In this document: positions 5,567-30,824 of the stretch, piece by piece | Layout: each line of letters starts with the position of its first letter | Position numbering within the stretch: position 1 is the stretch's first letter | NCBI GenBank assembly: GCA_963701025.1 | Contig: OY969557.1 | Span: 506,042-570,041 of the forward strand | Direction of reading: 5' to 3' | Source: an uncultured bacterium | GTDB lineage: Bacteria; Patescibacteriota; Minisyncoccia; Phycocordibacterales; PALSA-1337 | DNA length: 64,000 bases | Notes under the pieces: model-generated | Told to the model about the DNA's origin: nothing | What the model saw: the letters and a program-made list of their open reading frames with translations, nothing else | The model's database searches: none | Program-made: the position numbers and the translations under genes

Positions 5567-6127
5567 TCATTTCTTCGCCTTCTCCTCTTCCCTCTTCAGC
5601 GGCAATCCCAGATATTCCAAAAACGCTAAGGTGGTCTTCTTATCATGAGAAGTAGTGACGAGGGTGATACCCATACCGAAGACATCTTTCAAGTCCTCGT
5701 CCGATGTCTCGGCGAATATGGTGTGCTCCTTGACTCCGATAGTGTAATTGCCCATGGCGTCGACGGCAGTGCGGGGCAGACCGCGGAAGTCCTTGGTGCG
5801 GGGCAGAGCGATATTGATCAGGCGATCCATGAACTCGTCCATGCGCCTGCCACGGAGCGTGACCTGATAGGCGAGCGGGTCGCCGAGTCGCGTCTTGAAA
5901 GTAGCGATGGCTTTCTTGGCCACGCGTAGGGCCGGCTTTTGGCCGGTGATGCGGGACATGCGGTCGGCGATGAGATCGATCTTCTTCTTGTCCTTGACCG
6001 AGCCGAAGCCGGTGCCGACGACGACTTTGGAGAGGCGCGGGGCCTGCATCGGATTCTCGAGATGCAACTTGTCCTTCAGGGCTTTGAAGGATTCTTTATT
6101 GAGTTCTTGGACGGTTTTATGTGCCAT
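5567..6127 (-). CDS. rplE: 50S ribosomal protein L5
   Basis: Full-length uL5 sequence at the conserved position after rplX. Confidence 0.95.
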   Translation of the reverse strand: MAHKTVQELNKESFKALKDKLHLENPMQAPRLSKVVVGTGFGSVKDKKKIDLIADRMSRITGQKPALRVAKKAIATFKTRLGDPLAYQVTLRGRRMDEFMDRLINIALPRTKDFRGLPRTAVDAMGNYTIGVKEHTIFAETSDEDLKDVFGMGITLVTTSHDKKTTLAFLEYLGLPLKREEEKAKK

Positions 6128-6169: not shown

Positions 6170-6385
6170 TTAAATCTTTGCGACCTTGGAAGCAAAGATC
6201 GGCATGGCGCGATTGACGATCTGGCCTTTTTGATCCTGCCTCTTCCCTCGCTCGTGGCGTTTTACCATGTTCACCCCCTCGATGAGGATCTTGCCCTCGG
6301 CGGGAAAAGACTGGACAACCTTGCCGGTCTTGCCCTTGTCGTCGCCCGAGAGGATCTTCACCATGTCGCCGGTCTTGATATGCAT
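6170..6385 (-). CDS. rplX: 50S ribosomal protein L24
   Basis: KOW-domain uL24 (GDMVKILSGDDKGKTGKV). Confidence 0.95.
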   Translation of the reverse strand: MHIKTGDMVKILSGDDKGKTGKVVQSFPAEGKILIEGVNMVKRHERGKRQDQKGQIVNRAMPIFASKVAKI

Positions 6386-6430
6386 AGGAGTGAGTATGAA
6401 AGTATAAAGTATGCGGGTATGAGTGTATGG

Positions 6431-6802
6431 CTACACGATCTCTGCGGCGCGGGAAGCGATGGTCTTGAAGCCTGCTTCCGCCACTTCTCTGGGAATAGGC
6501 CCGAATACGCGCCCGGCTATCGGCTCTTTCTTGTCTTTCTCGATGATGACGACCGCGTTCTCGTCGAAACGTATGTATGAGCCGTCCTTCCGGCGGCTGG
6601 CCTTGGTCTGGCGGACGACGACCGCGTGGAGGACGTCTTTCTTCTTGACTGTCTTTCTCGGCTCGGCCTTCTGTACCGATAGGACCACTACTTCGCCTAG
6701 TTCGGCATAGCGCTTCTTGGAAGCGCCGAGCACCTTGAAGATGCGCCCGACCTTGGCACCGGAATTGTCCGCGATCTTGACTATGGAGCGGGGTTGGATC
6801 AT
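6431..6802 (-). CDS. rplN: 50S ribosomal protein L14
   Basis: MIQPRSIVKIADNSGAK... canonical uL14. Confidence 0.95.
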   Translation of the reverse strand: MIQPRSIVKIADNSGAKVGRIFKVLGASKKRYAELGEVVVLSVQKAEPRKTVKKKDVLHAVVVRQTKASRRKDGSYIRFDENAVVIIEKDKKEPIAGRVFGPIPREVAEAGFKTIASRAAEIV

Positions 6803-6832
6803 GGAGGTTAGGGTAGAGGGTGTAGGGTATAG

Positions 6833-7090
6833 TTAGGCAATCACTTTGAAGGCTTTGTTCTTCGACATCGGCCTGCAGGACTCGATAGTCGCCGTGTCAC
6901 CGATCTTCTTGGTATTGCCGGGATCATGCGCCATGAGCTTGGTCCTCTTGGTCTGGAACTTGTGATACTTTGCATGCTTGACGTAGCGCTCGATGACTAC
7001 TACCGTCGTGTCTTTCATTTTGTCCGACGAAACGACGCCGGTGAATGTCTGGCGTATCGTCTTTTGTTCGGCTGTTTTGGCGGTTGGCAT
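6833..7090 (-). CDS. rpsQ: 30S ribosomal protein S17
   Basis: Conserved uS17 sequence and operon position. Confidence 0.95.
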   Translation of the reverse strand: MPTAKTAEQKTIRQTFTGVVSSDKMKDTTVVVIERYVKHAKYHKFQTKRTKLMAHDPGNTKKIGDTATIESCRPMSKNKAFKVIA

Positions 7091-7151
7091 GTGAGCGCTG
7101 ATACTACTTGAAGTTTGTTGAAATGTCTAGCTAAAGGGAAACGGAAAATTT

Positions 7152-7358
7152 TTATTTTTGATTTTCTATCTTTACATTCATCGCCGTCAATATCCTGGCG
7201 ATGTCTTTCCGTATGGCCCTGCCCTCTTTTACATTCTTGGTCTTGGATCCCGTGGCGCCGAAACGGAATATGCGCAAAGACTCGCGCTTGTCGGCCGCGA
7301 GCTTAGCCAGGTCGGCTGGAGTCTTGCTGGTTATGTCCTTCATCTGTATAGCTTTCGT
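7152..7358 (-). CDS. rpmC: 50S ribosomal protein L29
   Basis: uL29-like 68-aa product starting at the internal Met (MTKAIQMKDITSKTPADL...). The ORF is open to 7400. Confidence 0.85.
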   Translation of the reverse strand, partial: TKAIQMKDITSKTPADLAKLAADKRESLRIFRFGATGSKTKNVKEGRAIRKDIARILTAMNVKIENQK

Positions 7359-7451
7359 CATAGAAAAAAGCTCGGTCGAGCTGTCCCGCCATGCTAACAA
7401 AAACGCGCCGGGGAGTCAAGGCGCGCCTGTGTTACGGGATATTATGCTCTT

Positions 7452-10379
7452 TTAAGCCCGCATCCTTCTCCAGATATAGAATCCGAGGCTGGCGAGAACG
7501 ACCAGGATGACAACGTAGACGTATATAGAATAGTTGACGCCAGCCCCTCCCACGGCGGCTACTTGAGAGGCGCCTGGTGTGCCCGGATTGCCCGTGGCAT
7601 TACCGGAATTCGATCCCGCGGAACCGGTGGAGTTGTTAGATAGCGCCGGGATAAGAGGTGCCCCAACTGGCGGTTGGGTACCTCCCGGAGTCAGGACAAG
7701 GCCGTTCGCGCCATTTCCGGCGGCGGAAATGAAGTTCTGACCGGAGCCAGCAGCAGCCGCGGCCGCATTACCCGCCGCGGCGAGAGCGACGGCAAACGGA
7801 ACGGCAGAAAAACCGCCGAATGACGATCCGCTACTGCCTCCGCCCCCGCTCAATTGCGGAGCGGGCGGATTATTGACAACTACGGTTCTTGTCACCTCCA
7901 CGGCGGGATTGCCGGCGGTATCAGTCGCGTTGTAGGCGACCGCGTATGTGCCGGCAACCGATGTGTTCACTATGTCGCCGCCGACTACAGCCGTAGTAGT
8001 TCCGTCGACGGCGTCGAACGCTGTGGCGCCTTGTTCAGTGTATTTATCGCCGACGGTCAGGCCAATTGACGCATCGCCGTTCAGGGTGATGACGGGAGGA
8101 ATTGTATCGACTACGGTCACGGAGAATGTAGAAGAAGAAATATTATTGCTCGAATCGGTAGCCGTGCATTTCACCGTGGTCGCACCAATGGTAAAGGTCG
8201 AGCCGGAAATCGGCGAACAGGCGGCTGTGGAATCTCCGCTATATGCATCATGTGCGGCCGGCGAATCATATGCTACTACAGCTCCAGAGGACGAAGCTGC
8301 TTCGGCAGTCACATCTTTGTGTGCGTCGATGGCCGGAGGTATGGTATCGACCGCATGAACGACCCTCACTACGGGAATAGCCACGTTCCCATGGCTATCT
8401 GTCACATTATAGATAACCGAATAATCGCCTATGACATTGCCGTCAACGGTGCTGGTCGTGGCAATCTGGCTCGTGAGATCCCCGTCTACACTGTCCGAGG
8501 CCGTGGCACCGGCGTCTACATATGTGGAAGGCGCTTGGATAGTCACGTCTGGGCTGCCGATGAGCGTTATTACCGGGGCTGTCGTGTCTTCGACAGTCAC
8601 TTTGAATGACGTAGGCGATGCATGGTTGCCGCTCGAGTCGACGGCATTGCAATCGACGGTGGTAGTGCCGAATGGAAAGGTCGAGCCGGAAGATGGGACG
8701 CAGACCACTGGTACGGGGCCGTCAACATCGTCCGTCGCCTTAGGAGGGACGTACGAAACGGCCGCTCCGGCGAGCGAGGTCGCCTCCACAGTCATGTCTC
8801 CAGGGCTCCCGCTGATGACCGGGGGAGTATTGTCGTATATGGTCATAGTCCCGGTCGCTTCGCCGGCGTAGTTGGGATCGGTCGAGCTTGCGTCTACTGC
8901 ATAACTGCCGAAAGCAGAGGGAGCAGTCGACGAGCCGTTATAGCTTATGGCCACCGACACACCGCCAGGCGTGGTGGAAGCCGTTACGATCTTCGGCGAG
9001 CCGTCATACGCTTGGCTCAAGCCATTCAAAGAGATGGCGACTGGCGCCGGGCCGATGGAAATGGAGAAGCTTTGGGTGGTGGATGATGTGCCGTTATCAG
9101 CGGTGACGGAAAAATTGGAGACACCGGCCGCGGTCGGAGTGCCGGAAATAGCCTCCGAGCGTCCGTCCGCGGCGGTCGAAAAGGAGAGACCGGCCGGCAA
9201 GGAGCCAGAAGACGTAGTGAAGGTGAATGGTCCGTCCGCCGAAGTAAACAGGTTCACAGACACCGGCCGTGGCAAATGCCCGTTCGAAAAAATCCGCTGA
9301 TACAGTGTGTTGACGGTGCCAGTCACCAAGGAAGACGGTGAGAGGCTGACCGGCATCGGGGCGACCGAGACGACCACGTTAAAGGTGCCGGTGCCCACCG
9401 CACCAAGCGTGCTCGTAGCGGTGCAGATGACTGTAGTCGTACCTGCAGGAAAGATCGAACCGGAAGCCGGATTGCACGCCACGGGGAGTGTGCCGCCGAA
9501 CACATATCCTGTAATGTAGTAGTCCGAATACGAAACACTTGTTCCATAAACCCCGCCGGCGGTAGCAGTAATATCTTGCGTAGGTATACCACCTATAGAA
9601 GGTATAGCTGGCGCGAATATCACAGATATGGTGTGATCGAAATGCTGCGGAGCGGGGAAACCGAGTCCGCTGTATCCGGCTGTACTAGTACCACCTCCAT
9701 TGAGCTGGCCATCAATGTAATCGGTATAGCTGTTGGCGATATAGCCAGGATCAGGTTCGAAGGTGATCGACTCGGAATTCCCAGAAGGAACGGTGAAGGT
9801 GCCGAGGGGCGATATCGTGCCATGTGGGCCGGCCGAGGTATTAAAGGTAACTGCGCCCGCAGAGGCGGCAGGAAAGAATAAAGCGTCGGGAGCCATGTTC
9901 GATATCGTCTTGAGGCTTGGAACAGGCGGTGTGCTCGATGGACCAACTGGGACGGCATCTGACGAACCGGAGGAAGTAGCAGAGGATGTAACACTAGTGT
10001 CGACAATAGTTGTCGTTGAAGTTGTTAATGCTGTAGTAGTCGTTGGTGCTGTAGTAGCGTCCCCGGCGTTAACGACCGCTGTCGATGTCGTTGCAACATA
10101 TCCGACAGGAGCTTGATCTGAAGATTGAACTAGGGAGCCAGCACTATCAGTAGTAACAGGGGTAGGATCAACGGGAGGCGTTGACGACACATCCGCAGGA
10201 GCGGATTGCGTGTCAGTAGAGACTGTTGGAGTGCCAGAAGAATCTGGAGCGGAGTCATCGGCATGCGTCACGAGCATCGGTATGTTGGCATACGAGCCGA
10301 CGAGAGCGATGATGACCACCGCTGAAAGCATTCTTGCGAGGGAAATATGGATATATTTCATAAAAGTCATGAAAAACAA
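7452..10379 (-). CDS. Large cell-surface protein (975 aa) with HYR/Ig-like (DUF5011-like) repeats, Thr/Ser-rich linker, Gly-rich region and C-terminal TM anchor
   Basis: There is an N-terminal signal/TM segment. Repeated PPVI(S/T)L..D.TV motifs resemble HYR/Ig-like domains. The C-terminus is YVYVVILVVLASLGFYIWRRMRA, a TM helix plus basic tail. The gene is inserted between rplP and rpmC. Confidence 0.7.
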   Translation of the reverse strand: MFFMTFMKYIHISLARMLSAVVIIALVGSYANIPMLVTHADDSAPDSSGTPTVSTDTQSAPADVSSTPPVDPTPVTTDSAGSLVQSSDQAPVGYVATTSTAVVNAGDATTAPTTTTALTTSTTTIVDTSVTSSATSSGSSDAVPVGPSSTPPVPSLKTISNMAPDALFFPAASAGAVTFNTSAGPHGTISPLGTFTVPSGNSESITFEPDPGYIANSYTDYIDGQLNGGGTSTAGYSGLGFPAPQHFDHTISVIFAPAIPSIGGIPTQDITATAGGVYGTSVSYSDYYITGYVFGGTLPVACNPASGSIFPAGTTTVICTATSTLGAVGTGTFNVVVSVAPMPVSLSPSSLVTGTVNTLYQRIFSNGHLPRPVSVNLFTSADGPFTFTTSSGSLPAGLSFSTAADGRSEAISGTPTAAGVSNFSVTADNGTSSTTQSFSISIGPAPVAISLNGLSQAYDGSPKIVTASTTPGGVSVAISYNGSSTAPSAFGSYAVDASSTDPNYAGEATGTMTIYDNTPPVISGSPGDMTVEATSLAGAAVSYVPPKATDDVDGPVPVVCVPSSGSTFPFGTTTVDCNAVDSSGNHASPTSFKVTVEDTTAPVITLIGSPDVTIQAPSTYVDAGATASDSVDGDLTSQIATTSTVDGNVIGDYSVIYNVTDSHGNVAIPVVRVVHAVDTIPPAIDAHKDVTAEAASSSGAVVAYDSPAAHDAYSGDSTAACSPISGSTFTIGATTVKCTATDSSNNISSSTFSVTVVDTIPPVITLNGDASIGLTVGDKYTEQGATAFDAVDGTTTAVVGGDIVNTSVAGTYAVAYNATDTAGNPAVEVTRTVVVNNPPAPQLSGGGGSSGSSFGGFSAVPFAVALAAAGNAAAAAAGSGQNFISAAGNGANGLVLTPGGTQPPVGAPLIPALSNNSTGSAGSNSGNATGNPGTPGASQVAAVGGAGVNYSIYVYVVILVVLASLGFYIWRRMRA

Positions 10380-10421
10380 GTCCTCGTATGACTAAAAATA
10401 TGGTTTTGCGGGGACAGGCGA

Positions 10422-10450
10422 ACCCTATCACACCTAGTAGTGCGTGTCAA
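10422..10450 (-). promoter_or_regulatory. Putative sigma70-like promoter for the 975-aa surface protein gene
   Basis: Minus-strand TTGACA, a 17-nt spacer, then TAGGGT, about 45 nt upstream of the ORF start. Confidence 0.3.
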
Positions 10451-10543
10451 GACAGCGTGTATATATATGGGGAGAAGCTGGGGACAGGACGGGGATAGCA
10501 AAAGCCTGCGGCTGGGCTATTTATCAAAAGTCACCAAAAGCGG

Positions 10544-10969
10544 CTACGCTCGGGCTACGATCTTGGTCTTCATGGGGAGCTTGGTGCCGGCCTTGCGAAG
10601 AGCTTCAGCGGCGACAACTGGTTCCACGCCATCGATCTCGAATATGATGCGACCCGGCCTGACTTCGGCGGTGAAGCCGACAGGCTCGCCTTTGCCCTTG
10701 CCCATTTTGACTTCAGCCGGCTTCTGGGTGAAGGGATGATCGGGGAAGACGCGGATCCAGACCTTGCCGGTCTTGCCGGCATTGTGCATGGCGGCTTTGC
10801 GGGCGGATTCGATCTGGTTGGAAGTGACGCGTCCATACTTCATGGCCTTAAGCCCGTACGAACCGAAAGAGACTTCAAGTCCGCGCGTCTCGGTCTTCAC
10901 GGCCTCCTTGGCCGCGTTCTTGCGCTTGGTGAACCATTTCCTATGCTTGACTTTCTTAGGATATAGCAT
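10544..10969 (-). CDS. rplP: 50S ribosomal protein L16
   Basis: Canonical uL16 ([11 protein letters not shown]...). Confidence 0.95.
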
Positions 10970-11032
10970 GTTGGTTAATTGAGGATTGGAATTGTAGATT
11001 GATAATTAATTTTCAATTTCAATTTTCAATTT

Positions 11033-11707
11033 TTAATTCGTTTTTTGATCCTTTTTAAATATCTCCCCTTTATATATCCACACCTTGATGCCTATGTCGC
11101 CATACGTCATATGGGCTTTTTCGCGAGCGAAGTCGATGTCGGCGCGCAGGGTCTGGAGCGGAACCTGGCCTTTCTTGAGCTCTTCGGTGCGAGCGATCTC
11201 GGCCCCGCCCAAGCGGCCGCCGAGACGGACGCGGATGCCCTTGACTTCCTTGTGAGCCATGACTTTCTCTATGGTCTGTTTCAGGACGCGGCGGAACGGC
11301 AGACGCTTTTCCAGAGCTTCGGCGATCATCATGCCGGTGATGGCGGCATTGGACTCCGGGCTCCGCACTTCCTCGACGTCGAGCTTGAGCTCCTTGCCGG
11401 CCAAGTCTATCTTGGCTTTGCGGATAAGAGTGATGATCTTCTCGCGAAGCTTGACGATGCCGTCGCCGGCCTTGCCGATGAGCATGCCGGGGCGCGACGT
11501 CTTGACGATAACGCGAATGCCCTTCTGGGTGCGCTCGATGTCGATGCCGCCGACGTAGAAGGAGCGGAGCTCTTTCTCCAGGAATTCGCGGATGATGATG
11601 TCGGTCTTGAGCGCAGTGCGATAGCTCTGGTCCGTAGCGAACCAGCGGCTCTTCCAGTCGCGGATGATTCCAAGCCTATGGGAATATGGATGTACGGTGT
11701 GGGACAT
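11033..11707 (-). CDS. rpsC: 30S ribosomal protein S3
   Basis: KH and S3-C domains; canonical uS3. Confidence 0.95.
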   Translation of the reverse strand: MSHTVHPYSHRLGIIRDWKSRWFATDQSYRTALKTDIIIREFLEKELRSFYVGGIDIERTQKGIRVIVKTSRPGMLIGKAGDGIVKLREKIITLIRKAKIDLAGKELKLDVEEVRSPESNAAITGMMIAEALEKRLPFRRVLKQTIEKVMAHKEVKGIRVRLGGRLGGAEIARTEELKKGQVPLQTLRADIDFAREKAHMTYGDIGIKVWIYKGEIFKKDQKTN

Positions 11708-11716
11708 GTTAGTAAA

Positions 11717-11745
11717 TGGAAAGTGGAAAGTGGAAAGTGGAAAGT
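11717..11745. repeat. Tandem heptad repeat (GGAAAGT)x4 on the plus strand, (ACTTTCC)x4 on the coding strand, filling the rplV-rpsC spacer
   Basis: Four perfect tandem copies, read directly in the sequence. The spacer is G-free on the mRNA strand. Confidence 0.9.
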
Positions 11746-11751
11746 TTCATA

Positions 11752-12132
11752 TTATTTTCTTGCGGGTTTATTACTATTCGCCACACTCAACTTTCCACCC
11801 TCGACTTTCGTAGCAAGCGTGATTGACACATGGCTGGTGCGTTTCTTGATGGGATGGGCGGAACCGCGGGAAACCGGCATATGGCGCTTGAGGACATAAC
11901 CCTGATCGACGCGGATCTCTTTTATGAAAAGGCTGGCTTTGTCGAGCTTGTGATTGTGGGAAGCGTTGGCCACGGCCGAGTCGATGAGATCGGAGAGCGG
12001 GTGCCGGGCTTTCTTCAACCCTTGAGCCAGGATGTTCTTGGCGTCACTAATGCTCTTGCCGCGGATCATGTTGGCCACGACACGGACTTTGCGGGGGGAG
12101 ATGCGATAATTCTTGAGGGATGCGGTGACCAT
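11752..12132 (-). CDS. rplV: 50S ribosomal protein L22
   Basis: Canonical uL22. Confidence 0.95.
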   Translation of the reverse strand: MVTASLKNYRISPRKVRVVANMIRGKSISDAKNILAQGLKKARHPLSDLIDSAVANASHNHKLDKASLFIKEIRVDQGYVLKRHMPVSRGSAHPIKKRTSHVSITLATKVEGGKLSVANSNKPARK

Positions 12133-12168
12133 GTTAGTGATTGAAAATTGGAATTGAAGATTGAAAGA

Positions 12169-12519
12169 TTATTTCTTGGCGCCGGCGTCGGTGGCGGCGG
12201 CTTTGGCGGCGGACGCGGCGGCGATCTCGGCCTCCTTGGCTTTCATCTCGATCTCCTTCTGCATCTTGCCGCCGTGGCGGACGAACTTCTTTGTGGGCGA
12301 AAATTCACCGAGGCGGTGTCCAACCATGTCCTCGGTGACCAGAACGTCGTTATGGATGCGCCCATTGTGGACGCCGAAGGTGAAGCCCACCATCTCCGGG
12401 GAGATCTGCGAGCGGCGCGCCCAGGTCTTTATGATACCGGCGGATGCCGGCTTTTTTCCCGCGATCTTCTTGAGGAGCCTCTCTTCGACGAAAGGCCCTT
12501 TTTTGAGCGAACGTGCCAT
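12169..12519 (-). CDS. rpsS: 30S ribosomal protein S19 with Ala/Lys-rich C-terminal tail
   Basis: uS19 core ([19 protein letters not shown]...) plus a roughly 25-aa AK-rich extension. Confidence 0.95.
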
Positions 12520-12669
12520 GTTCAATGAAAAATGCTCGAAGCGAGCGTGGAAGCCATAGTATCAGAGCCGGATTGGAGAGTCAAGAGAATGGCTAAGATA
12601 AAGGATGGGTAATAAAAAGCCGGGCCCATTTCTGAACCCAGCAACTGTGCTAAACCTGATTTTCAGCGA

Positions 12670-13122
12670 TTACGGCATGCCACCAAACATGTGTTCGCTC
12701 ACCAGATGAACGCCGCGGCCAACTGCGGCTCCGCGCTCATAATGCTTGGCAATGACGGCCATAAGCCCATAAAAGTAAGCCTTCCTGCCGTCAGTATCGA
12801 GTTGGAATTTGAATGTGGAACCGCACGCCTTGATGACACCACCAATCCGGGCAAAACCGCGAAGATGCTCAATGGGAACATCCAGAAAGACCTCTGCCAA
12901 TGGGTCGCTACGACCAGAACCGACTTTTTCCTTCGGGACGCCGAACATTTCAGCGAGATCATGAGCCGTGGCTGAACCAGGGGGCTTGTCCGACTGATGG
13001 AATTCGGCAAAGATAGACTTCGCGCCAAGAGATGTGACAGAGAAACTCAATTTCCGGAACGCGTCCATCACCGCGACCGTGAGCAGACCAAGGTTAGGGC
13101 CACTGTATACGACAGTCTTCAC
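12670..13122 (-). CDS. Hypothetical protein (150 aa), no confident family assignment
   Basis: Clean ORF co-oriented with the ribosomal protein operon, lying between rplB and rpsS. Its GC is similar to the host. Confidence 0.4.
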   Translation of the reverse strand: MKTVVYSGPNLGLLTVAVMDAFRKLSFSVTSLGAKSIFAEFHQSDKPPGSATAHDLAEMFGVPKEKVGSGRSDPLAEVFLDVPIEHLRGFARIGGVIKACGSTFKFQLDTDGRKAYFYGLMAVIAKHYERGAAVGRGVHLVSEHMFGGMP

Positions 13123-13181
13123 ATCCGATGGCCGCGTGGGATGTTATCCGAACGGATTTAAGCCGTTATTATAACTAATCC

Positions 13182-13736
13182 TTATTTAGCTACTGACCAT
13201 TTTTTTACCGTATTACCAAGCCATTTGAGTTGGCTGATGCGAAGTCGATTCAGTATTGGTAATAGATAAGATATCAAACCAGAGAAATCTTCAGACGGAC
13301 CACAAACCTCTTGTTCAATAATAAATGCAACATCTGCATCGAGCGGATCTATTTTTATACCGTAAAGTTTTTCCATTGATGAGTGCTGGTTGTCAATTTC
13401 TTGCGTCTTTTTTTCATGAAATGCGAACGCTAGTACAAAAAACTTCTTGGCTTCATCTGGCAAAGAATGCATAAGCTTTTCCTGAATTTTTTCTCCAAAA
13501 ATAGATAAATAACCGCCTTCAGGAGCGAGACACAAATAGAAAAGGTGCGCTCCAATTAGGCAGTTTATAAACTTCGATTTTATCTCATCATTACTCAAAA
13601 TACCGGTCCAGTCTGGTAAATCTTCCTTTTTCAATTCGGCCACCAATTTCGTAGAATTAATAGCCGACCACGACGGAAATTCGTTAAGAATAATTTCGGA
13701 GTCCTTATCTGTTTTTGATTTGGAAAACCATCCCAT
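13182..13736 (-). CDS. Hypothetical protein (184 aa), low-GC ORFan
   Basis: AT-rich compared with its surroundings. No recognisable motifs. Confidence 0.4.
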   Translation of the reverse strand: MGWFSKSKTDKDSEIILNEFPSWSAINSTKLVAELKKEDLPDWTGILSNDEIKSKFINCLIGAHLFYLCLAPEGGYLSIFGEKIQEKLMHSLPDEAKKFFVLAFAFHEKKTQEIDNQHSSMEKLYGIKIDPLDADVAFIIEQEVCGPSEDFSGLISYLLPILNRLRISQLKWLGNTVKKWSVAK

Positions 13737-13753
13737 AATGAATAGATTCTAGC

Positions 13754-13996
13754 TCATAATTGGCTGTATTCGCCGACCGCGCCTACAGCTCTTTCGGAAA
13801 GTGATGCGCAAGCCGCTTGGTAGATAATAGACAGTATATCAGAACAGATCATCTCCAGATAATCCTTATTGAAAGTCGAGGGTGTGATCGAGCTTCCAAT
13901 ATTCTTGCCTTGGTCCCACAACTCAAATCGTGACTGGCCGTCTTGTACTGGTTCCTCGTACATTCTCAACATTTCTTTTATCTCTGAAGACTTCAT
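13754..13996 (-). CDS. Hypothetical small protein (80 aa), low-GC ORFan
   Basis: AT-rich and tightly spaced upstream of the 184-aa gene. Confidence 0.3.
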   Translation of the reverse strand: MKSSEIKEMLRMYEEPVQDGQSRFELWDQGKNIGSSITPSTFNKDYLEMICSDILSIIYQAACASLSERAVGAVGEYSQL

Positions 13997-14058
13997 CAGA
14001 AAAATCTATCATACTGATATAAAAAAGTCACCAGCTCCTTTAAGCTCAATATCCCCCA

Positions 14059-14067
14059 TGCTATAAT
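14059..14067 (+). promoter_or_regulatory. Extended -10 element (TGCTATAAT) upstream of the histidine kinase gene
   Basis: TGnTATAAT lies about 25 nt upstream of the ATG at 14090. Confidence 0.4.
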
Positions 14068-14089
14068 TCCCCCACCAGTCTCTTTCTCC

Positions 14090-14908
14090 ATGACATCAGC
14101 ATATCTCATCAGCGTCTTTAGTCTCATGCAAAACAGCCCATATTCGATAGTGGCTACAGCCCTCGTCACAGCTCTCATCGCCGCCCTCATCATCCACATC
14201 CTCTGGCGGAAGCTCCGGGAGGACGAGAGATCGAAATACGAATTCATCACCATCATGGCCCACAAGTTCCGCACGCCGCTCACCCATATCAAATGGGTCT
14301 CCGAGGAGTTATCCGGCAACACCCAGGAAACGTCGACGCGCGAAGGCCTGAAAGAGATCCAGAAAGCCGACAAGAACCTGGTCGGCCTCACAACGACATT
14401 GATCGAGCTAACGGATTCTGATACGGACCACGCCTTGTATTCATTCGAAGCCACCGATCTGTGCGATTTCGTCAAGACGATCGGCGAGACGGCGAGGCGG
14501 ACCTTCCAGGAGAAGAACATCTTCTTCTCGGTCGCCTGCGACAGCGGCCCGGTATTCGCCAAGATAGACAGACCGCGCATGGAATTCGCCGTTCAAGTGC
14601 TCATGGACAATGCCTTCGCCTACACGCCGACGGGCAAGAAGGTGGAGATTTCGGTCGGCGGCTCCGGACACAATGCAGTCATATCGGTCAAGGACGGGGG
14701 CATCGGCATTCGGGAATCTGACGTGAAAAAGATATTCGGCAAATTCTTCCGGGCGGACAATGCCAGAGCCGCGGATACCGAGGGATTCGGCATCGGGCTC
14801 TATCTCGCCCGGTCAGTGGTCAAAAAACACAAAGGAAAGATCACGGCCTTCTCGGAGGGAGAAGGCCGCGGTTCGGTATTCAATATAATACTGCCCCGGT
14901 CGCGATAG
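14090..14908 (+). CDS. Orphan mini sensor histidine kinase (single TM, HisKA + HATPase_c, no sensor domain)
   Basis: H-box MAHKFRTPL. N, G1 and G2 boxes are present (DGGIGI, GFGIGLYL). One N-terminal TM helix. No response regulator lies nearby. Confidence 0.85.
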   Translation: MTSAYLISVFSLMQNSPYSIVATALVTALIAALIIHILWRKLREDERSKYEFITIMAHKFRTPLTHIKWVSEELSGNTQETSTREGLKEIQKADKNLVGLTTTLIELTDSDTDHALYSFEATDLCDFVKTIGETARRTFQEKNIFFSVACDSGPVFAKIDRPRMEFAVQVLMDNAFAYTPTGKKVEISVGGSGHNAVISVKDGGIGIRESDVKKIFGKFFRADNARAADTEGFGIGLYLARSVVKKHKGKITAFSEGEGRGSVFNIILPRSR

Positions 14909-15786: not shown

Positions 15787-15834
15787 GTGATTATTGCTCT
15801 ATTTGTAGCATTAGGATAAATTCGTTGATTCGGA

Positions 15835-16344: not shown

Positions 16345-16391
16345 GGTAGTGAATGAAAATTTCTAATTGACCTAATTATCTAATTTCTAAA

Positions 16392-17063: not shown

Positions 17064-17153
17064 GAAAGAAAAAAGCTCTTGCGAGTCGTGCCGAGCATAG
17101 TAGCAGAGCCGTGAAGGAGAGTCAACAGCTAGGTGAAAGGCGCTGGCAGAAAT

Positions 17154-17215
17154 CTTGAGCGTTTCTTTATCAAATCTTAGGCGTTTTTTGATTACTTTTT
17201 GAGCGTTTCTTTATC
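17154..17215 (+). promoter_or_regulatory. Two direct repeats TTGAGCGTTTCTTTATC (17154-17171 and 17198-17215) upstream of the toxin gene; putative promoter/operator
   Basis: Direct repeats 44 nt apart. The second repeat lies 22 nt before the ATG. The same 17-mer recurs upstream of both comEC halves. Confidence 0.5.
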
Positions 17216-17236
17216 TCGATTTGATATGGTTAGAGG

Positions 17237-18482: not shown

Positions 18483-18494
18483 TGGAATATGTAA

Positions 18495-18529
18495 TGCGAA
18501 TCTACAAATAGTATCCGAATGCCACGAAT
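18495..18529 (-). promoter_or_regulatory. 35-nt promoter-like element upstream of rplC; near-identical copy upstream of rpsL
   Basis: 33 of 35 positions are identical to 30832-30866. On the coding strand it reads cATTCGGAtactatttgtagattcgCATTAC, i.e. a -35-like box, a 17-nt spacer, a -10-like box, then about 11 nt to the ATG. Confidence 0.5.
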
Positions 18530-18568
18530 TCGTAGCATTAGTGCGTATTCGCAGATTCGGATTATGCT

Positions 18569-18988: not shown

Positions 18989-19068
18989 GATATGTAATCC
19001 TAATCTACGAATCTCATCCGAATGCCGCGAATATTCGTTGTATTCGTGCGATTATTCGTAGATTCGCA

Positions 19069-20447: not shown

Positions 20448-21902
20448 TTATTGGACGATATTGAACACTCCATCGCTCGAATCGCAATTACTTGTGCCTG
20501 ATTGACAGATCTGGACGCTATATTGGCCGTCGGGAACGGTACCGACGTCACCGGTTCCACCATTACCATTTATATTACTGTATTGGCCCACATCCCAACT
20601 ATATGAATCCTGGTTGATTGCTATGCCTGTAGCTATCGTATATGGCGCGAGCATATACATCGGACACATCGAACCGGCCGGGCACGGTGCTTGATACGGC
20701 ACGAGCTTCAAGTCAGCCGTCGTTGCGGCGAAATAATACGGCGATGTCCAGACGATATTCTGCGTCGTTCCACGCGCCCACGCTTCTCCGCCGTTGGGAG
20801 AGATTATTCTCAAAGGACTAACCGCCGTTGAACCGGTGACATTGACCGTCGAGGTCGTTTGAGCTTGCAGACCCGCATTATCCCTGACAGTGAAAGTGAT
20901 CATGTATGTGCCTGGGTTCGAATAGACGTGAGTGAAGGAAGTACTCTGGATGAAAGCCATCGCCATAGCAGGAGTGGCGCAGGTCGCCGGATAGTTGCAA
21001 TTCGGCGAATCTCCCCAATTCACGGAATAACTCAATACCCCATTGGCCGGATCGCTGGCGTGAATAGTCCATGTGCCCGTCTGATTGACAGAGAGCGACG
21101 TCGGCGCATCTATGCCGCTAATGACCGGCGTTTGACCATTCGTTACCCCATTCGTAGTGATCGTGAAATAATTATCGCTGTCATCGCACTGCGAACCATT
21201 CGTGAGACAAATCTGGATCTTGTATTGGCCAGAGGCTATTGGCGTCATTTGATCAGGACAAGATGTCGCGAACGCATCACATGGTATTGCCAAAGGTACT
21301 GAATTTCCAACATTCCAGGCATACGAATCAGAACCAAGGTTGACCCCGCTCGCAATAGTCAGAGGCGCACGCACCGCGATCATGCATCTGATCGGCTGAC
21401 CGGGCTCCGCACAGGCCGGCACAGGAAATTCAAGTCTGATGTCTCCCGTCTGATTGAGCGCGCCCGGCGTGCCGGTCCACGTGATGTACTGCGTCGTTCC
21501 GGTTTGCCACGTCTCGCCGCCATTTGGCGAAATGACTCGGAGAAAATCGGTCGGATTGTTATCGTTGTTACCGCCGCCGTTCAATATCTGGCGGGTCAAG
21601 GGCCCAAAGAAGCCGAAGGCCGGAAGACTGACGGATGTCTGATATCTGATGAGAGCGGCTTTGGTCTGCGAGCCGAAGTAGCCTTTTGCGGCACTGCCGG
21701 AACTGATGGCCGGTATGTCATAGCCGTTCGAGATGAGCCACGTCTGGAGATTGACCACATCCTGCCCGGAACTGCCGACGGTTAAGTTGTTCGAGAATGT
21801 GTAGTCTTGGGCATAGACGCTCGATTTGGCGCCGGCGACAAGGGCGATAGCGATAATGGCAATGGCAACGGCAATGGCGGTAAAAATGAGATATTTTTTC
21901 AT
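20448..21902 (-). CDS. Secreted surface protein with N-terminal PG_binding_1-like domain, repeated beta-sandwich modules (ISPNGGE.W..GTTQ.I.W) and a PKD-like domain
   Basis: Probable start MKKYLIFTAIAVAIAIIAIALVAG (signal/TM); the ORF is open to 22007. PG-binding pattern LTVGSSGQDVVNLQTWLISNGY...FGPLTRQIL. PKD-like segment YSVNWGDSP. Confidence 0.7.
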   Translation of the reverse strand: MKKYLIFTAIAVAIAIIAIALVAGAKSSVYAQDYTFSNNLTVGSSGQDVVNLQTWLISNGYDIPAISSGSAAKGYFGSQTKAALIRYQTSVSLPAFGFFGPLTRQILNGGGNNDNNPTDFLRVISPNGGETWQTGTTQYITWTGTPGALNQTGDIRLEFPVPACAEPGQPIRCMIAVRAPLTIASGVNLGSDSYAWNVGNSVPLAIPCDAFATSCPDQMTPIASGQYKIQICLTNGSQCDDSDNYFTITTNGVTNGQTPVISGIDAPTSLSVNQTGTWTIHASDPANGVLSYSVNWGDSPNCNYPATCATPAMAMAFIQSTSFTHVYSNPGTYMITFTVRDNAGLQAQTTSTVNVTGSTAVSPLRIISPNGGEAWARGTTQNIVWTSPYYFAATTADLKLVPYQAPCPAGSMCPMYMLAPYTIATGIAINQDSYSWDVGQYSNINGNGGTGDVGTVPDGQYSVQICQSGTSNCDSSDGVFNIVQ

Positions 21903-22023
21903 GCTGATGATGACGGATGAAATGGATAATTGTTTCAGACCAATGATAGCTCCTAATCGCCAAAATAGGAAGAGAAAACCGCCCCGAGGAGGGCGGCTTT
22001 CTGACACAAGAGCTTATTCGCTA

Positions 22024-25000
22024 TTAATGAGTCGCGTACCACTGATTGACCGCCGCATTGACGGCGTCCCAGATGGAGGCGGTGTAGTTTGTTTGCGGCA
22101 ACAAGGCCGTCGCGCTCACTCGAAGTCCGCTAAGCCCTTGGGTAATGGAACTCGCTTGAAGGCTGCTCGGGCTCGTTCCGTAATTTATCTGGTTGACCTG
22201 GAAAGAGGAGAAGCCTGCAGTGCCCGAAGACATGATCGTGCCATTGTAGGTGAACTGACGAGATGAACCGGCGGGGATGACGTAAGAACCATTGCTAGCT
22301 GTCGGATTGGTATCACCGGACAGGTTACCCGGGTTCGTTATAACGCCGGCAATAGGTAGATTCAGTGTGGCAGGTCCTGTGTTCGTGATACCGAGGGATG
22401 TGGACGGATTTGAACTGATATATATGGTGCTGTTAGCGGCAGTAAGCGTGAAGGAGTAGCTGACGTTATAACCAGTGGTGATAGCGACGCCACCGACATT
22501 GCTCGTGATCGGCGAACCGAGGACGGCTGATGTATTGCTGACTTGGACCACACTAGAGACGAATGTGATGGGGCTCCCGCTAAGATTTGCATTTGTCACT
22601 TGGACGGTATTGTACGACTGATCCACGATCACAACATTCGAGTTATTAGCCGCAAGGCTTACCGTAGCGCTGGAACCGTTTAGGGCACCACTTGAATCAG
22701 CGGCAACTGTACCAGAGATGGTGACCGGAATATTGCTACTAGCCGGCAACGGGATACTGATATTGGTGAACGAAACAGACGAACCATTGATAGAGCTTGC
22801 CGAGTAAGTGAGGCCGCCAGCCTTGACCTGGATATCGGAGAATAGGCTAGAAACGGAAGCGCCAGTCGTGTTTATGTTCACATTGAGAGAGTTGAGGGTA
22901 GCGGGTGCGTTCTGGACATTGATGTCGAAGACAGCGAGAGGAACATTATTAGTCTGGGCCGTGGTCGATATTTGTACCATGCCCGCAAGCGGCGAGGAGG
23001 CGTCAAGCGAGAGGGTGGCCGTTGCGGGATTGTTGGTATTTCCAGAAGTTACAGTGAAGGAATTAGACATGGCTTGAGCGCAGGAATAATTCGTACATGG
23101 GGCACCTTGATTGGTACGCTGAACAACCTGTACAAAATAAGATCCTGCTGGAACACTAGAAGGGATAATGAATGATACCGTCTGTTGATTTCCACTTATG
23201 CCAGTTACATTACCGAGTGCATAGATTGGTGATCCCTCTCCTCCAGCATAATCCAGGTTAATCAGATATTGATCTCCCTGTGATGGATTAGAGAACGTGA
23301 CACTCAACTGACTGCCAACTTGAAAAGTTTGTCCTCCTGTTGGAGACACGATACCTACACTTGGTGCATTACCAGTTATAGTCACGTTAAATTCTCCACA
23401 GCTTGTTGTGCTTATGTATGCGCCCGCAGGACAAACAGCTATAGTATATGTACCGTTTGGAATGTTAGAGATCCCTTTCCAATTACCTGATGCTGAGCCG
23501 ACATTCCACTGGAACCAACCACTATTCGGGTACGATGAGGCGAATGGATAATAAGTACTTCCAATCTCAAGATAAATATCGACGGTGGATACATTTCCAG
23601 AAGATGTCCATGTCCATGATCCAAGAGTGGATTGTTGCCAAGTGACACTACTTGAAGGAGAGGTGATTTTGATAGATGACTGGGTGGTCGTCACGGTCAC
23701 CGGCGCGGGAGTGATCGATGAAGCCGGAATCTGCGCCGTCAGAGACGTTCCATCGGTGAATTGGACATAGAGAGTACCACCGGGGAATTGCGAGCGTTCC
23801 GGCTGGCCGTACATGGACAATGTGTGCGTTCCGGCCGTGAAGGATAGCGGTACGTCATAGCTGTGGTTAAGCTGGACGCCATTCTCGTATATCACCAACG
23901 GATAGAGTCCGAAGGCCGATCCGGTGAACCAGCGTTCCCAATTATTACCGTCAGACAGATATATCCATTGAGCGGTCTTCGCCGTCGGCAGAGTCATGAC
24001 GGCGGTCCAATCCCAATCGTTCGAGGTGAAGCCTGTGCCGTTCGACGTGCCCGGTCCGAGAATGCCATATGTGCCGGCCATGTCGCTCGAAGCGCTGGCT
24101 ACGTAAGCATATAGGGATCCCTGCGACTGCGTGGTAGACGGAGCCGGGGCCGGAAAACCGGTTTGATAGGAGCAGGTATAGCCAGCGGGACATGATGGGG
24201 TCGTATTCGTGCTTCCAACCTGTACCGAAGCGCTCGTATGCGCGGTCAGGCCGGCGGCATTTTGAACAGTAAAGACGACATTGTAAGTTCCGGCCATTTT
24301 GTAGACATGACTGAAAGTCGATGTCTGGACGGATGAGCTCTTCATCGCGGAAGGTGTTAGCGCTTCGACGATGGTATCGCCCCAATTGACCGAGTAGGTC
24401 AATGAGCCATTCTGCGGATCGGACGCATTGACCGTCCACGTGCCCATCTGGCCGACATTGAGAGATGTCGGGAATGTGCCGCCGGAGATGACGGGGGGTT
24501 GAGGAGCAGTAGTCTGCGCCAGCGTGATCGTGAAATAATTGTCGCTCGAGTCATGGATCCCTATGACTGCAGGATTGCCATAATCGGAAGCCAACAGGAC
24601 TTTATATTGCCCGGCAATGATGGTTCTCGGAATATTGGTACATTGATAATTCTTACCGAGAGTAGCCGTGAAATAACCTTGGCTGACCGGAGCGCTTCCT
24701 AACAAGCATGTTCCACCATCAGCAAAATTAAGGTAGACATACACATTCCCTGTGAGACCTGATGATATCCATGTCGTCCTAAAATCTACATTTTTCACAC
24801 CGAGACTTATTTGTTCCCCTCCATTGGGATAGGTAACGGTGATGGAAGGCTGGGTGGTGCCTAATGGATTAACAACAAGACTACCGGTCGTTAACTTATT
24901 ATTGTTCGAGTCATACACATAAACCGTGTATTGACCGATAGCAAGCGCCGGCGATACAGTCACTGACCAATTACCGTTTATGACTGAAATCAAACCGCTA

Positions 25001-28879: not shown

Positions 28880-29161
28880 TCAATTATTCCCCAACCAGAC
28901 TCTGTAGATCCAATCATGCGTACCGCAAGTCATGAATGCCACGGTATCTTTGTCCACGAATTTGAAGGCGATACGATAAGTGGAATCTATCCGGATGGTC
29001 CAAATCTGCTTGCCTTTTGGTTCCAGTTTCTCGGTGTGCAAAGAAGGATAGAACGGGTTGTACCGGAACAGGCGCTCCTGTTTCTCTGCTTTCTTCTGGA
29101 CTTCAACGGGCAGGAGCTTATAGCGCCTTTTGAATTCATCGGTTACAACGACCTTCCACAT
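28880..29161 (-). CDS. Type II toxin, RelE/YafQ-like mRNA interferase
   Basis: 93 aa with a C-terminal TCGTHDWIY segment like the YafQ/RelE GTH motif. It is preceded by a small antitoxin-like gene. Confidence 0.55.
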   Translation of the reverse strand: MWKVVVTDEFKRRYKLLPVEVQKKAEKQERLFRYNPFYPSLHTEKLEPKGKQIWTIRIDSTYRIAFKFVDKDTVAFMTCGTHDWIYRVWLGNN

Positions 29162-29866: not shown

Positions 29867-30337
29867 CTACCACGCGAAGTGGGCGAAGGCCTTGTTGGCC
29901 TCGGCCATCTTGTGGACGTTCTCGCGCTTCTTGACGGCTTCGCCTTCGTTCTTGGAGGCGGCGATGATCTCGTCGGCGAGCTTCAAGTGCATGGGCTTGC
30001 CTTTCTTGCCGCGGGCGGCTTCGACGATCCATTTCATGGACAGCGCGTTCTTGCGCTCGGGACGGACTTCGCGAGGAACCTGGTAGTTGGCTCCGCCGAC
30101 GCGGCGAGAACGAACCTCCATGGCCGGGGTGGTGTTCTTGAGGGCGAGCTCGAAGACTTCAATCGGATTCTCGACTTTGGCCTGCTCCTTTATAGCGTTC
30201 ATACAGCCATAGACGATGGTGCGGGCGGTCGACTTCTTGCCCTCCTGCATGACATAGTTGATGAGCTTGGCGACCTTGAGCGAATCGAAAGTCGAATCGG
30301 GCTTGAGATCTCTCTTTATGTTTGTTTTTCTGCGCAT
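29867..30337 (-). CDS. rpsG: 30S ribosomal protein S7
   Basis: Canonical uS7. Confidence 0.95.
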
Positions 30338-30404
30338 GTTATTGGAAAGTCGAGAGTGGAAGGTGGAAAGTAGTGATTTCTACTCTCTACCTTCTACTGT
30401 CTAA

Positions 30405-30824
30405 TTACGCTTTTACTGCTTTCGGCTTCTTGTTTCCATACTGGCTGCGGCCTTTACGGCGCTTCTCCACTCCGGCGCAGTCGAGGACGCCGCGGACGAT
30501 GGAATAGCGCAGACCAACGTCTTTGACGCGGCCACCGCGCAGGAGGACCACGGCGTGCTCCTGCAGGTTGTGGCCCTCGCCCGGTACATAAGCCGTCACT
30601 TCGACGCCGTTGGAAAGGCGCACGCGGGCGATCTTGCGGATGGCGGAGTTAGGCTTTTTCGGTGTCTTGGTCGTCACTTTGACGCAAACGCCGCGCTTGA
30701 AAGGCGCGGGAATATAGCTCGGCCGATTCTCGATCGAGTTAAACGTGCGGGTGAGAGCGATCGACTTCGACTTCCTCTGGAAGCGTACGCGATTTCTTTT
30801 TGTAAGCTGATTGATTGTGGGCAT
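30405..30824 (-). CDS. rpsL: 30S ribosomal protein S12
   Basis: Canonical uS12 (PTINQL...). Confidence 0.97.

Follow-up and report, generated by a model that had tools for sequence, protein, structure and literature searches.

We have analysed a 64-kb stretch of DNA (contig OY969557.1; the whole stretch is called the window below) from an uncultured bacterium of the Paceibacterota (Parcubacteria, candidate phyla radiation, CPR), and in particular the intergenic spacers of its ribosomal-protein (r-protein) operon. In this lineage, r-protein genes start without a Shine-Dalgarno (SD) sequence, in a Kozak-like context and with a depletion of G and of AUG that is anchored to the start codon and specific to the mRNA strand. 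The start signal is a short A/U/C-rich tract that is nearly devoid of G and of any other AUG and whose context is Kozak-like (A at both −6 and −3, C or U at −1; ACUAMC-AUG in the clade of the window). Some of the spacers are built from tandem 7-nt units, and the unit itself is probably a mutational by-product rather than the signal. Our favoured explanation, which we give a probability of about 0.5, is that arrays born by slippage and purged of G beside the AUG would leave a low-structure, decoy-free tract for SD-independent initiation.

By Pfam, the region 6386-12168 is part of an S10/spc-type r-protein operon on the minus strand (Table 1), with tuf, rpsJ, rplC, rplD, rplW and rplB upstream of the listed genes, and with rpsL and rpsG at 29867-30824. 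The best relatives of its S3 protein are found in Paceibacterota metagenome-assembled genomes, some of them labelled Taylorbacteria, at 76-87% amino-acid identity; the nearest ones reach only 86-87%, and no relative is close to identical with the organism of the window. For the comparison across the lineage, 15 r-protein genes were placed by tblastn in 160 related loci (L with a number below) and in the window. Repeats were evaluated with Tandem Repeats Finder (TRF) and by ungapped periodicity against composition-preserving shuffles.

Spacer composition and absence of Shine-Dalgarno sequences

An earlier, sequence-only reading of this DNA had pointed to six spacers that it described as G-depleted tandem repeats in place of SD sequences. 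The mRNA-sense sequences and repeats that it quoted are present exactly as given. Five of these spacers do lie inside 6386-12168, where all six had been placed, while rpsL-rpsG is real but located outside that range (Table 1). Taken together, the five spacers amount to 218 nt on the minus strand, with 74 T, 71 A, 68 C and 5 G, whereas the remaining intergenic DNA of the window has ca 23.5% G and ca 23.5% C. The G deficit corresponds to a binomial p of ca 1e-18, and the difference between G and C within the five spacers to p = 3e-15. A genome-wide G-poor intergenic composition is ruled out by the value for the rest of the intergenic DNA. The 2% G in the spacers cannot be explained by mutational or codon bias either, since the four-fold codon sites have 24% G overall and 20% in the r-protein genes; as the sole cause, such a bias is also ruled out by the A+T content, which is 67% in the spacers compared to ca 21% at the four-fold sites of the r-protein genes.

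No GGAGG-like core is found 5-13 nt upstream of the start in any of the six spacers, and GGAG, GAGG or AGGA occurs at −20 to −3 in 5 of the 69 genes of the window. The possibility that mis-called starts hide an SD sequence is ruled out, because the Pfam and homologue alignments begin at residues 1-6. The absence of SD-like cores is thus borne out at homologue-verified starts, and neither of the two outcomes that the sequence-only reading had listed as speaking against it, equally G-poor intergenic DNA elsewhere or a conventional SD upstream of corrected starts, was found. Across the lineage, the SD-like 4-mers (GGAG, GAGG, AGGA) precede 2.9% of 1422 unique r-protein starts compared to 9.8% in a control window, which means that the spacers do stand in place of SD sequences, in a lineage without SD use.

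Start-codon context

The same 1422 starts have 2-10% G at positions −15 to −1, A at −6 in 70% and at −3 in 43% of the cases, and a pyrimidine at −1 in 93%. Among the 22 closest genomes the context is more pronounced and reads ACUAMC-AUG (A-6 85%, U-4 65%, A-3 62%, C-1 72%), and every one of the six spacers in the window ends in a version of this motif.

The median spacer of the lineage is 10 nt long, and spacers of up to 50 nt have 4-9% G against 14-20% C. In the long spacers (at least 40 nt, n = 189 unique), G climbs from 6% at −5 to −1 to ca 15% beyond −20. At most one G is found in the last 30 nt of 47 of them, while at most one C is found in only 5; the first 30 nt have no such asymmetry, the corresponding numbers being 20 and 14. 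Possible decoy starts are scarce in the same place: the last 30 nt hold 19 ATG triplets, compared to 56 +/- 7 expected from the composition, and 88 NTG triplets, compared to 125 +/- 9. The poverty in G beside the start is therefore specific for both strand and position, as expected of the initiation-related role at the RNA level that had been suggested for these tracts.

Repeat units in the window

A strong period of 7 (p <= 0.003 against shuffles) is present in three of the six spacers, namely rplV-rpsC (p = 0.002; TRF period 7, 4.1 copies, 100% match), rpsC-rplP (p = 0.002) and rpsL-rpsG (p = 0.003). The periodicity is marginal in rpsQ-rplN (period 7, p ca 0.02-0.03, 0.018 in one test) and in rplN-rplX (period 8, p ca 0.03-0.04, 0.028 in one test; TRF array at 6393-6413), and it is weak in rpsS-rplV (ungapped p ca 0.16-0.2), where TRF, with indels, gives period 7, 4.6 copies and a score of 34. 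The arrays in the window stop 7-18 nt before the AUG. The suggestion that each spacer has its own unit is only partly correct, since ACTTTCC-type units are common to rplV-rpsC and rpsL-rpsG, and TTCAA/CAATTC-type units to rpsS-rplV and rpsC-rplP. At least six different units are present in the window. The ACTTTCC-type units occur at three sites within the 64 kb.

Several other repeats were observed in the window. A second family of spacers has CGAAT-type units (18483-18568, 18989-19068 and 30825-30900 on the minus strand; also 15787-15834, 41846-41869 and 61107-61141) and, immediately before the AUG start codons of rplC, rpsJ and rpsL, a common motif of ca 40 nt (GCAUUCGGAUACUAUUUGUAGAUUCG.AUUA.AU). 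A dispersed 11/22-nt tandem repeat (TTGAGCGTTTCTTTATC-like) is located at 17150-17224, 34754-34803 and 36943-36992, upstream of unrelated genes (in the promoter region of rplD, at the 33781-34743 gene and at a ComEC-like gene), and may be a regulator-binding array. The 8-nt units of AATTAG/GGTCAATTAG type are common to the rplD-rplW spacer (16345-16391) and to the divergent region that separates an M50 peptidase gene from rpmB (33154-33222). Finally, the complement of rpsQ-rplN (6803-6835, plus strand) reads GGAGGTTAGGGTAGAGGGTGTAGGG, a telomere-like run that could potentially form a G-quadruplex on the template strand. As an explanation for the spacers, such a quadruplex was set aside, since G-runs are absent from the other ones.

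Inverted repeats and folding

The tracts had been presumed to be unstructured, which fails for three of the six: those of rpsL-rpsG, rplV-rpsC and rpsC-rplP each make up the 3' arm of a significant inverted repeat (z = 6-8, with 0 of 200 shuffles as strong; Table 1). The fold of rpsL-rpsG has an energy of −25.9 kcal/mol (z = −5.4, 0 of 200 shuffles). In the case of rplV-rpsC, the purine-rich arm lies within rplV, where it encodes the variable C-terminal tail of L22 (TKVEGGKLSVAN) and belongs to a TRF array at 11781-11809. It pairs with 11726-11746 of the ACUUUCC array through 18 Watson-Crick and two G.U pairs with one mismatch, and the minimum free energy (MFE) is −30.7 (z = −1.85). The palindrome of rpsC-rplP has 20 Watson-Crick pairs and five A.C mismatches, because of which its RNA barely folds (MFE −10.1 kcal/mol, z = +0.55).

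For the other three spacers, rpsS-rplV, rpsQ-rplN and rplN-rplX, no partner arm is present within −100 to +80 nt (inverted-repeat z = −0.4, −0.1 and −0.5, respectively), and they fold no better than shuffles (z = +0.88, +0.43 and +0.12). Counted over all six tracts, three or four are no more stably folded than their shuffles. Strong stem-loops are also formed by the CGAAT-type spacers tuf-rpsJ and rpsJ-rplC (−27 and −32 kcal/mol; z = −3.6 and −4.6). A G-poor tail of ca 7-18 nt lies between the stem and the AUG in all cases in the window, and lineage-wide the last 6-15 nt before the AUG are usually outside the stem.

Table 1. Spacers, repeat arms, genes and promoter-like sites of the r-protein operon (positions in the window)
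Feature	Position	Strand	Description
rpsS-rplV spacer	12133-12168	-	36 nt, 0 G; degenerate TTCAA-type 6-7-nt units; ends CACUAAC-AUG
rplV-rpsC spacer	11708-11751	-	44 nt, 1 G; UAUGAA, four perfect ACUUUCC, AUUUACUAAC-AUG
rpsC-rplP spacer	10970-11032	-	63 nt; 3 G, confined to the 5' half; ends AACCAAC-AUG
rpsQ-rplN spacer	6803-6832	-	30 nt, 0 G, 53% C; three ACCCU-containing heptads; ends AACCUCC-AUG
rplN-rplX spacer	6386-6430	-	45 nt, 1 G; CAUAC-type 7-8-nt units; ends CACUCCU-AUG
rpsL-rpsG spacer	30338-30404	-	15% G in the whole spacer; 14-nt G-free tail (..UUUCCAAUAAC) before AUG
rpsL-rpsG stem-loop, purine arm	30380-30401	-	GUAG-type heptads; inverted repeat z = 7.4
rpsL-rpsG stem-loop, pyrimidine arm	30352-30373	-	ACUUUCC-type heptads; inverted repeat z = 7.4
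rplV-rpsC purine-rich 5' arm	11789-11809	-	GAAAGUCGAGGGUGGAAAGUU, inside the last 58 nt of rplV; z = 6.2, 0 of 200 shuffles
rpsC-rplP imperfect heptad palindrome, 5' arm	11006-11031	-	AAUUGAAAAUUGAAAUUGAAAAUUAA; z = 7.9
rpsC-rplP imperfect heptad palindrome, 3' arm	10977-11002	-	UCAAUCUACAAUUCCAAUCCUCAAUU, G-free; z = 7.9
rpsS	12169-12519	-	Pfam
rplV	11752-12132	-	Pfam
rpsC	11033-11707	-	Pfam
rplP	10544-10969	-	Pfam
rpmC	7152-7361	-	Pfam
rpsQ	6833-7090	-	Pfam
rplN	6431-6802	-	Pfam
rplX	6170-6385	-	Pfam
rplE	5567-6127	-	Pfam
Promoter-like site upstream of rpsS	12556-12584	-	TTGACT-17-TACTAT with TG extension
Equivalent promoter-like site, rplD	17097-17125	-	TTGACT-17-TA(C/G)(T/C)AT
Equivalent promoter-like site, rpmC	7391-7419	-	TTGACT-17-TA(C/G)(T/C)AT

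Repeat arrays across the lineage

We now consider how common such arrays are and how they change between relatives. Significant periodicity (p <= 0.01) is seen in 82 of the 278 unique spacers that are 25-200 nt long; 62 of the 82 have a period of 7, while the distribution in the shuffles is flat. TRF gives the same picture, with periods of 7, 14 and 21 making up 78 of the 179 non-coding arrays, while the coding arrays have multiples of 3. The arrays are close to the starts: 37 of the 60 co-directional ones end at most 18 nt from the start codon. Significant inverted repeats make up 77 of the 208 spacers of at least 35 nt, and about half of the periodic spacers also hold complementary heptads. 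At the non-Watson-Crick positions of the inverted repeats, the sense strand has 108 A.C against 55 G.U (p = 4e-5), and the sense fold is weaker than the antisense one in 59 of the 77. The mRNA version is thus the destabilised one, and the idea that the hairpins are kept by G.U wobble pairs on the mRNA strand is ruled out.

Conservation of the repeat units across relatives is mostly absent. The rplV-rpsC junction consists of a single nucleotide (C) in most relatives, while it is 44-48 nt long in the window, L085 and L083, which share the arrangement UAUGAA..(ACUUUNN)n..UUACUAAC; this is the only array with recognisable orthologues. At rplN-rplX, L119 has 4 nt and L121 has 42 nt, despite a nucleotide identity of 90.6% in rpsC. 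The units vary widely between genomes (AAATACT, CCATTAA, CTCTACT, AATTANN and others), and no heptad copy-number differences are found among identical or near-identical pairs of the other loci. The gain and loss of arrays between close relatives and the differing units fit a mutational origin of the units.

Some spacers of the related loci have features of their own. In L003 (with CTAATAA as the unit) and L008 (with CCATTAA), the heptad array extends into rplV at its 3' end, such that it encodes the last residues of L22 and its UAA stop. Spacers of 130-180 nt recur in distant relatives (rpsC-rplP in L015 and L023, rplN-rplX in L035 and L042, rplX-rplE in L041, rpmC-rpsQ in L027) and carry a long-range stem, for example ACCCCnCCC...GGGnGGGGU or ACCCUGUUAAAU...AUUUAACAGGGU, which is followed in L015 and L035 by a conserved GAUUUUUAUACUC...GUUAAAAAUC motif before the AUG. 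They may represent structured leaders or elements of an internal promoter. In L037, two families of near-identical elements (ca 80 and ca 100 nt) occupy seven consecutive spacers, from rpsS-rplV to rplX-rplE, which indicates a recent intragenomic spread or homogenisation.

Proposed mechanism

According to the explanation that we favour, replication slippage and local duplication would create the arrays and lengthen spacers that are normally minimal. Selection on the mRNA strand near the start codon would then strip G, and the loss of G would abolish both G-C and G-U pairing and at the same time remove AUG, GUG and UUG decoys. The resulting tract could be bound by a 30S subunit, or by a ribosome fresh from termination at the preceding gene, which would reach the only AUG by diffusion. 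A complementary purine-rich arm, where one is present (rplV-rpsC, rpsL-rpsG and, weakly, rpsC-rplP), may sequester the tract. As the arm of rplV-rpsC is inside rplV, ribosomes translating rplV would open the stem on finishing the gene, and the initiation of rpsC would in this way be coupled to the translation of rplV.

A number of observations weigh against this proposal. As described above, an upstream arm is available for pairing in three of the six cases, with a very stable stem in rpsL-rpsG, and the sense-strand hairpins still average ca −30 kcal/mol lineage-wide, so that many spacers are not unstructured overall. Furthermore, several spacers of this operon lack both properties, the freedom from G and the repeats; those that contain G are rpmC-rpsQ with 11% G, rplX-rplE with 21%, tuf-rpsJ with 21%, and rpsJ-rplC. 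The dominance of period 7 (62 of 82) is so strong that slippage alone may not suffice, and in L033, L041, L055 and L121 one 42-nt AATTANN array has the same length, phase and AATTA core, the two other positions of each unit varying among the four genomes.

Alternative explanations

One option is that the spacers are neutral or selfish palindromic or tandem elements, similar to repetitive extragenic palindromes (REP), bacterial interspersed mosaic elements (BIME) or miniature inverted-repeat transposable elements (MITE), which expand in permissive gaps and have no role in initiation, affecting at most mRNA stability or processing. The poverty in G near the AUG would then be a mere footprint of a general constraint on the start context. 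This is consistent with the 1-10 nt that the same junctions have in most relatives, with the presence or absence of whole blocks between close relatives such as L119 and L121, with the near-identical 80-100-nt elements in at least five spacers of L037, with the large share of inverted repeats among the long spacers, and with the operon of the window tolerating inserted foreign genes as well. We nevertheless consider it unlikely, as the G-free stretches of the window span 30-45 nt, well beyond a start context of ca 15 nt, the long spacers have the strand and position asymmetry given above (47 against 5), and the AATTANN array is conserved in length and phase.

The periodicity itself could instead be functional, with the heptad as the register for an oligonucleotide-binding (OB-fold) protein that binds single-stranded RNA, either a bS1 with 3-4 domains or a cold-shock protein (Csp), and the array acting as a multivalent recruitment or melting site. 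The preference for 7 in the periodic spacers and for 7, 14 and 21 in the non-coding TRF arrays, together with the position of the array ends relative to the start codon, would follow naturally from such a register, and so would the retention of the AATTA core, phase and length in four genomes and of the ACUUU core in the L085 orthologue of the window array. S1 and Csp have also been proposed as binders of the TAACTGA repeats of other bacteria (PMC4679880), and most CPR bS1 proteins have 3-4 S1 domains (PMC9297842). However, the units differ within and between genomes and have no common motif, most orthologous junctions lack arrays, half of the periodic spacers hold complementary heptads that a binder of single-stranded RNA does not need, and heptamers are the commonest class of simple repeats in many unrelated bacteria (PMC4679880). 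On balance, a phased binding array appears distinctly unlikely.

In a broader form of this idea, heptad arrays would be cis-acting SD substitutes in Paceibacterota that lack the anti-SD, and two routes can be envisaged. The first is the phased multivalent docking just described, for a bS1 of 3-4 domains or a Csp-type OB-fold protein. In the second, the two-armed form would place a helix 6-15 nt upstream of the AUG and fill the platform cleft of the SD/anti-SD helix; in Parcubacteria, helix h26 of the 16S, a contact of the SD/anti-SD helix, is conserved to an unusual degree with no known reason (PMC9297842). A functional 7-nt period by either of the routes is, in our judgement, improbable.

An option that concerns only rplV-rpsC is a relay mini-cistron. 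The only G of this spacer is in an AUG that opens a 13-codon open reading frame (ORF), which ends at a UAA 1 nt before the AUG of rpsC. Ribosomes could thus restart 1 nt after the UAA of rplV, translate 13 codons through the array and restart at rpsC, which would melt the stem with the 3' end of rplV and keep the UAA-C-AUG coupling geometry of the relatives that have the 1-nt spacer. The ORF fills the spacer exactly, and the L085 and L083 orthologues each have one G, located in the 5'-proximal AUG, and an in-frame UAA 1 nt before the rpsC start; the three ORFs are 42, 42 and 45 nt long (13-14 codons) and therefore differ by a multiple of 3. The three cases are of common ancestry, though, and a G-free sequence permits UAA as the sole stop, which makes open frames cheap. 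AUG is entirely absent from the five other quoted spacers. As such an ORF occurs in only 9 of 251 spacers lineage-wide, compared to 4.0 +/- 2.0 in shuffles, relay ORFs are rejected as a general rule, and at rplV-rpsC the relay is a doubtful proposition.

Two further explanations are very improbable. The first is an element at the level of transcription: the tract, rich in C and poor in G, would load Rho as a rut-like site and thereby enforce polarity, or else the A/T-rich spacer would hold an internal promoter. Rut sites are C-rich, G-poor, unstructured stretches of RNA of ca 60-80 nt, and the C:G ratio of 68 to 5 in the RNA, the three or four unstructured tracts and one promoter-like match (TTGAAA-16-AATTAT) in the rpsC-rplP spacer are in line with this option; however, the tracts, of 30-63 nt, are below the typical rut length, promoter-like matches are not enriched (14 against 9.6 +/- 3.3 expected), the clear promoters of the operon (TTGACT-17-TACTAT) are located elsewhere, and the depletion of G is tied to the start codon. 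The second, with an equally slim chance, is a re-coded SD/anti-SD interaction in which an altered 16S 3' tail pairs with a pyrimidine-rich leader motif, as might be imagined from the conserved ACUAMC directly before the AUG in the clade and from the absence of the canonical anti-SD motif in ca half of the Parcubacteria (PMC9297842); the repeat units, however, have no common sequence, and A at −3 and −6 acts without base pairing in other bacteria (PMC6847099). The ACUAMC motif itself, at −6 to −1, is also too near the AUG. Positions −6 to −1 lie inside the mRNA channel, too close to the start for an SD-type helix.

Comparison with known systems

The statement of the sequence-only reading that such repeats are not described turned out to be too strong. 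Heptamer repeats before SD-less starts, also in r-protein operons, are known from marine Beggiatoaceae, some cyanobacteria and Bacteroidetes: MacGregor (2015) described direct repeats of TAACTGA a few nucleotides before SD-less starts, also inside r-protein operons, and a post-transcriptional role was proposed for them, with S1, Csp or CsrA as binders (PMC4679880). For CPR bacteria, no literature on start-adjacent heptad repeats of this kind was found. The similarities are considerable, as both systems have tandem 7-nt units (2-6 copies in the case of TAACTGA) in intergenic positions, ending a few nucleotides from the start, with SD sequences being rare and internal r-protein junctions among the sites. 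Unlike the single G-containing unit that is used genome-wide there, the present lineage has many units per genome and lineage; the tracts have no G on the mRNA strand, complementary heptads are present in about half of the periodic spacers, and the host is a CPR bacterium. Another difference is that the Beggiatoaceae 16S predicts normal SD use. No TAACTGA dimers are present in the window, even with two mismatches allowed, or in the 160 loci, and with the many different units as a further reason, membership in the TAACTGA family was rejected.

As to the initiation itself, the closest parallel is found in the Bacteroidia. In the SD-less Flavobacterium johnsoniae, A-3 and A-6, low structure and the avoidance of AUG were shown experimentally to tune initiation, and it was proposed that the 30S subunit binds an unstructured region and then diffuses laterally (Baez et al. 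2019, PMC6847099). The absence of SD sequences, the favourable A-3 and A-6 and the scarcity of AUG near the start are common to both lineages. However, the Bacteroidia keep the anti-SD and sequester it (PMC7797042), with bS21, bS18 and bS6 involved, whereas many Parcubacteria seem to have lost the motif: Tsurumaki et al. detected it in only 48% of them, overlapping with the group that lacks uL1, and losses of both the anti-SD motif and bS21 are frequent (PMC9297842). The strong pyrimidine preference at −1 and the G-free tracts of 30-45 nt that are built from tandem repeats are also different here. In the window, 16S has no Rfam match, and the conserved 16S 3' motif is absent from all 160 related loci.

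The arrays can also be compared with simple repeats in general. As summarised in PMC4679880 from Mrazek et al. (2007), heptanucleotides are the commonest long simple repeats in prokaryotes and are attributed to polymerase slippage; to the extent of that summary, they resemble the present arrays in being the dominant non-coding 7-nt class, mostly intergenic, sporadic in their phylogeny and of a proposed slippage origin. These simple sequence repeats, as well as the short tandemly repeated repetitive (STRR) sequences, differ in that they are not specifically tied to start codons, to a G-free composition or to the loss of SD. The cyanobacterial STRR sequences, reportedly described by Mazel et al. 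in 1990, are a 7-nt tandem class. At the hmw adhesin genes of Haemophilus influenzae, a phase-variable heptanucleotide array is located between promoter and start, and its length alters expression via the structure and processing of the 5' untranslated region, as described in PMC8262952 and PMC12721329; as portrayed there, these are contingency loci of surface proteins with long, strain-variable arrays, unlike the 3-5 units at r-protein genes here.

The palindromic spacers have a different set of counterparts. REP/BIME, Correia and BOX elements are intercistronic imperfect palindromes that occur in several copies per genome and form stem-loops with possible effects on mRNA decay or processing. 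An imperfect palindrome with the potential to form a stem-loop is present in three of the six quoted spacers and also in tuf-rpsJ and rpsJ-rplC, and it is absent in rpsS-rplV, rpsQ-rplN and rplN-rplX. In contrast to those elements, the arms are here made of tandem heptads, many copies have a single arm, the AUG-proximal copy is depleted in G, and there is no evidence of a transposase-dependent origin, though no search aimed at terminal repeats or target duplications was made. Finally, the epsilon sequence of T7 gene 10, the omega leader of tobacco mosaic virus (TMV) and CA repeats are A/U-rich or CA-rich enhancers bound by S1, which are G-poor, unstructured and partly repetitive and increase initiation without any SD pairing; TMV omega is G-free and made of short direct repeats. 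They differ from the present tracts in that they act in SD-using hosts or are viral, follow no heptad rule and are not intercistronic.

Other features of the window

The str/S10/spc cluster is broken by non-ribosomal genes at 7452-10379, 12670-14908, 20448-26340 and 28880-29161. The gap between rplP and rpmC holds a 975-residue surface protein with Ig-like, HYR and MBG domains, the one between rplB and rpsS small hypothetical genes and a plus-strand histidine kinase, the one between fusA and tuf two large PG-binding/PKD proteins, and the one between rpsG and fusA a HigB/RelE-like toxin. No tRNAs or Rfam RNA families are found in the 64-kb window.

Two of the promoter-like sites in Table 1 precede rpsS and rpmC, each being the next r-protein gene downstream of a foreign-gene insertion, and the third precedes rplD. 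These internal sites indicate that the operon is split into several transcription units, inside which the G-free repeat spacers are located. The leaders of rpsS, rplD and rpmC (12520-12560, 17064-17100 and 7362-7395, minus strand) are alike, with a short GC stem (e.g. GCUCGcuuCGAGC), a run of U and then 8-13 nt without G up to the AUG. Their design looks like that of a terminator or attenuator, or like the same plan of a stem plus a G-free tail as in the repeat spacers.

The EF-G gene fusA (26564-28732, minus strand) is readable only with three frame switches, near 27925, 27835 and 27030, which were located by alignment to the intact 713-residue EF-G of L029. The breaks could be assembly indels, a pseudogene or recoding; as they make local indel errors possible, the exact copy numbers of the repeats should be read with caution.

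Implications

Heptad arrays combined with a Bacteroidia-like, SD-independent initiation fit a known way of starting translation and do not amount to a new mechanism. The novelty lies in the host, a CPR bacterium, in the many different units, in the lack of G and in the palindromes made of heptads. If the spacers are only slippage debris under a composition filter, they are no more than a neat illustration of known principles. The arrays and palindromes are, on the other hand, natural insertions with which one can ask if SD-less initiation needs only an unstructured, decoy-free tract, and the heptad spacers bear on translational coupling across gaps of 30-60 nt and on the 7-nt register as a possible trace of a binding protein. 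The start context is directly useful for gene calling and for start-site prediction in CPR genomes. The Paceibacterota represent a huge uncultured share of bacterial diversity, and many of them seemingly lack the anti-SD. The present results suggest that they choose their starts by apparently the same logic as the Bacteroidia, that is, by a G-poor, AUG-free tract of low structure with A at −3 and −6, to which a strong pyrimidine preference at −1 is added.

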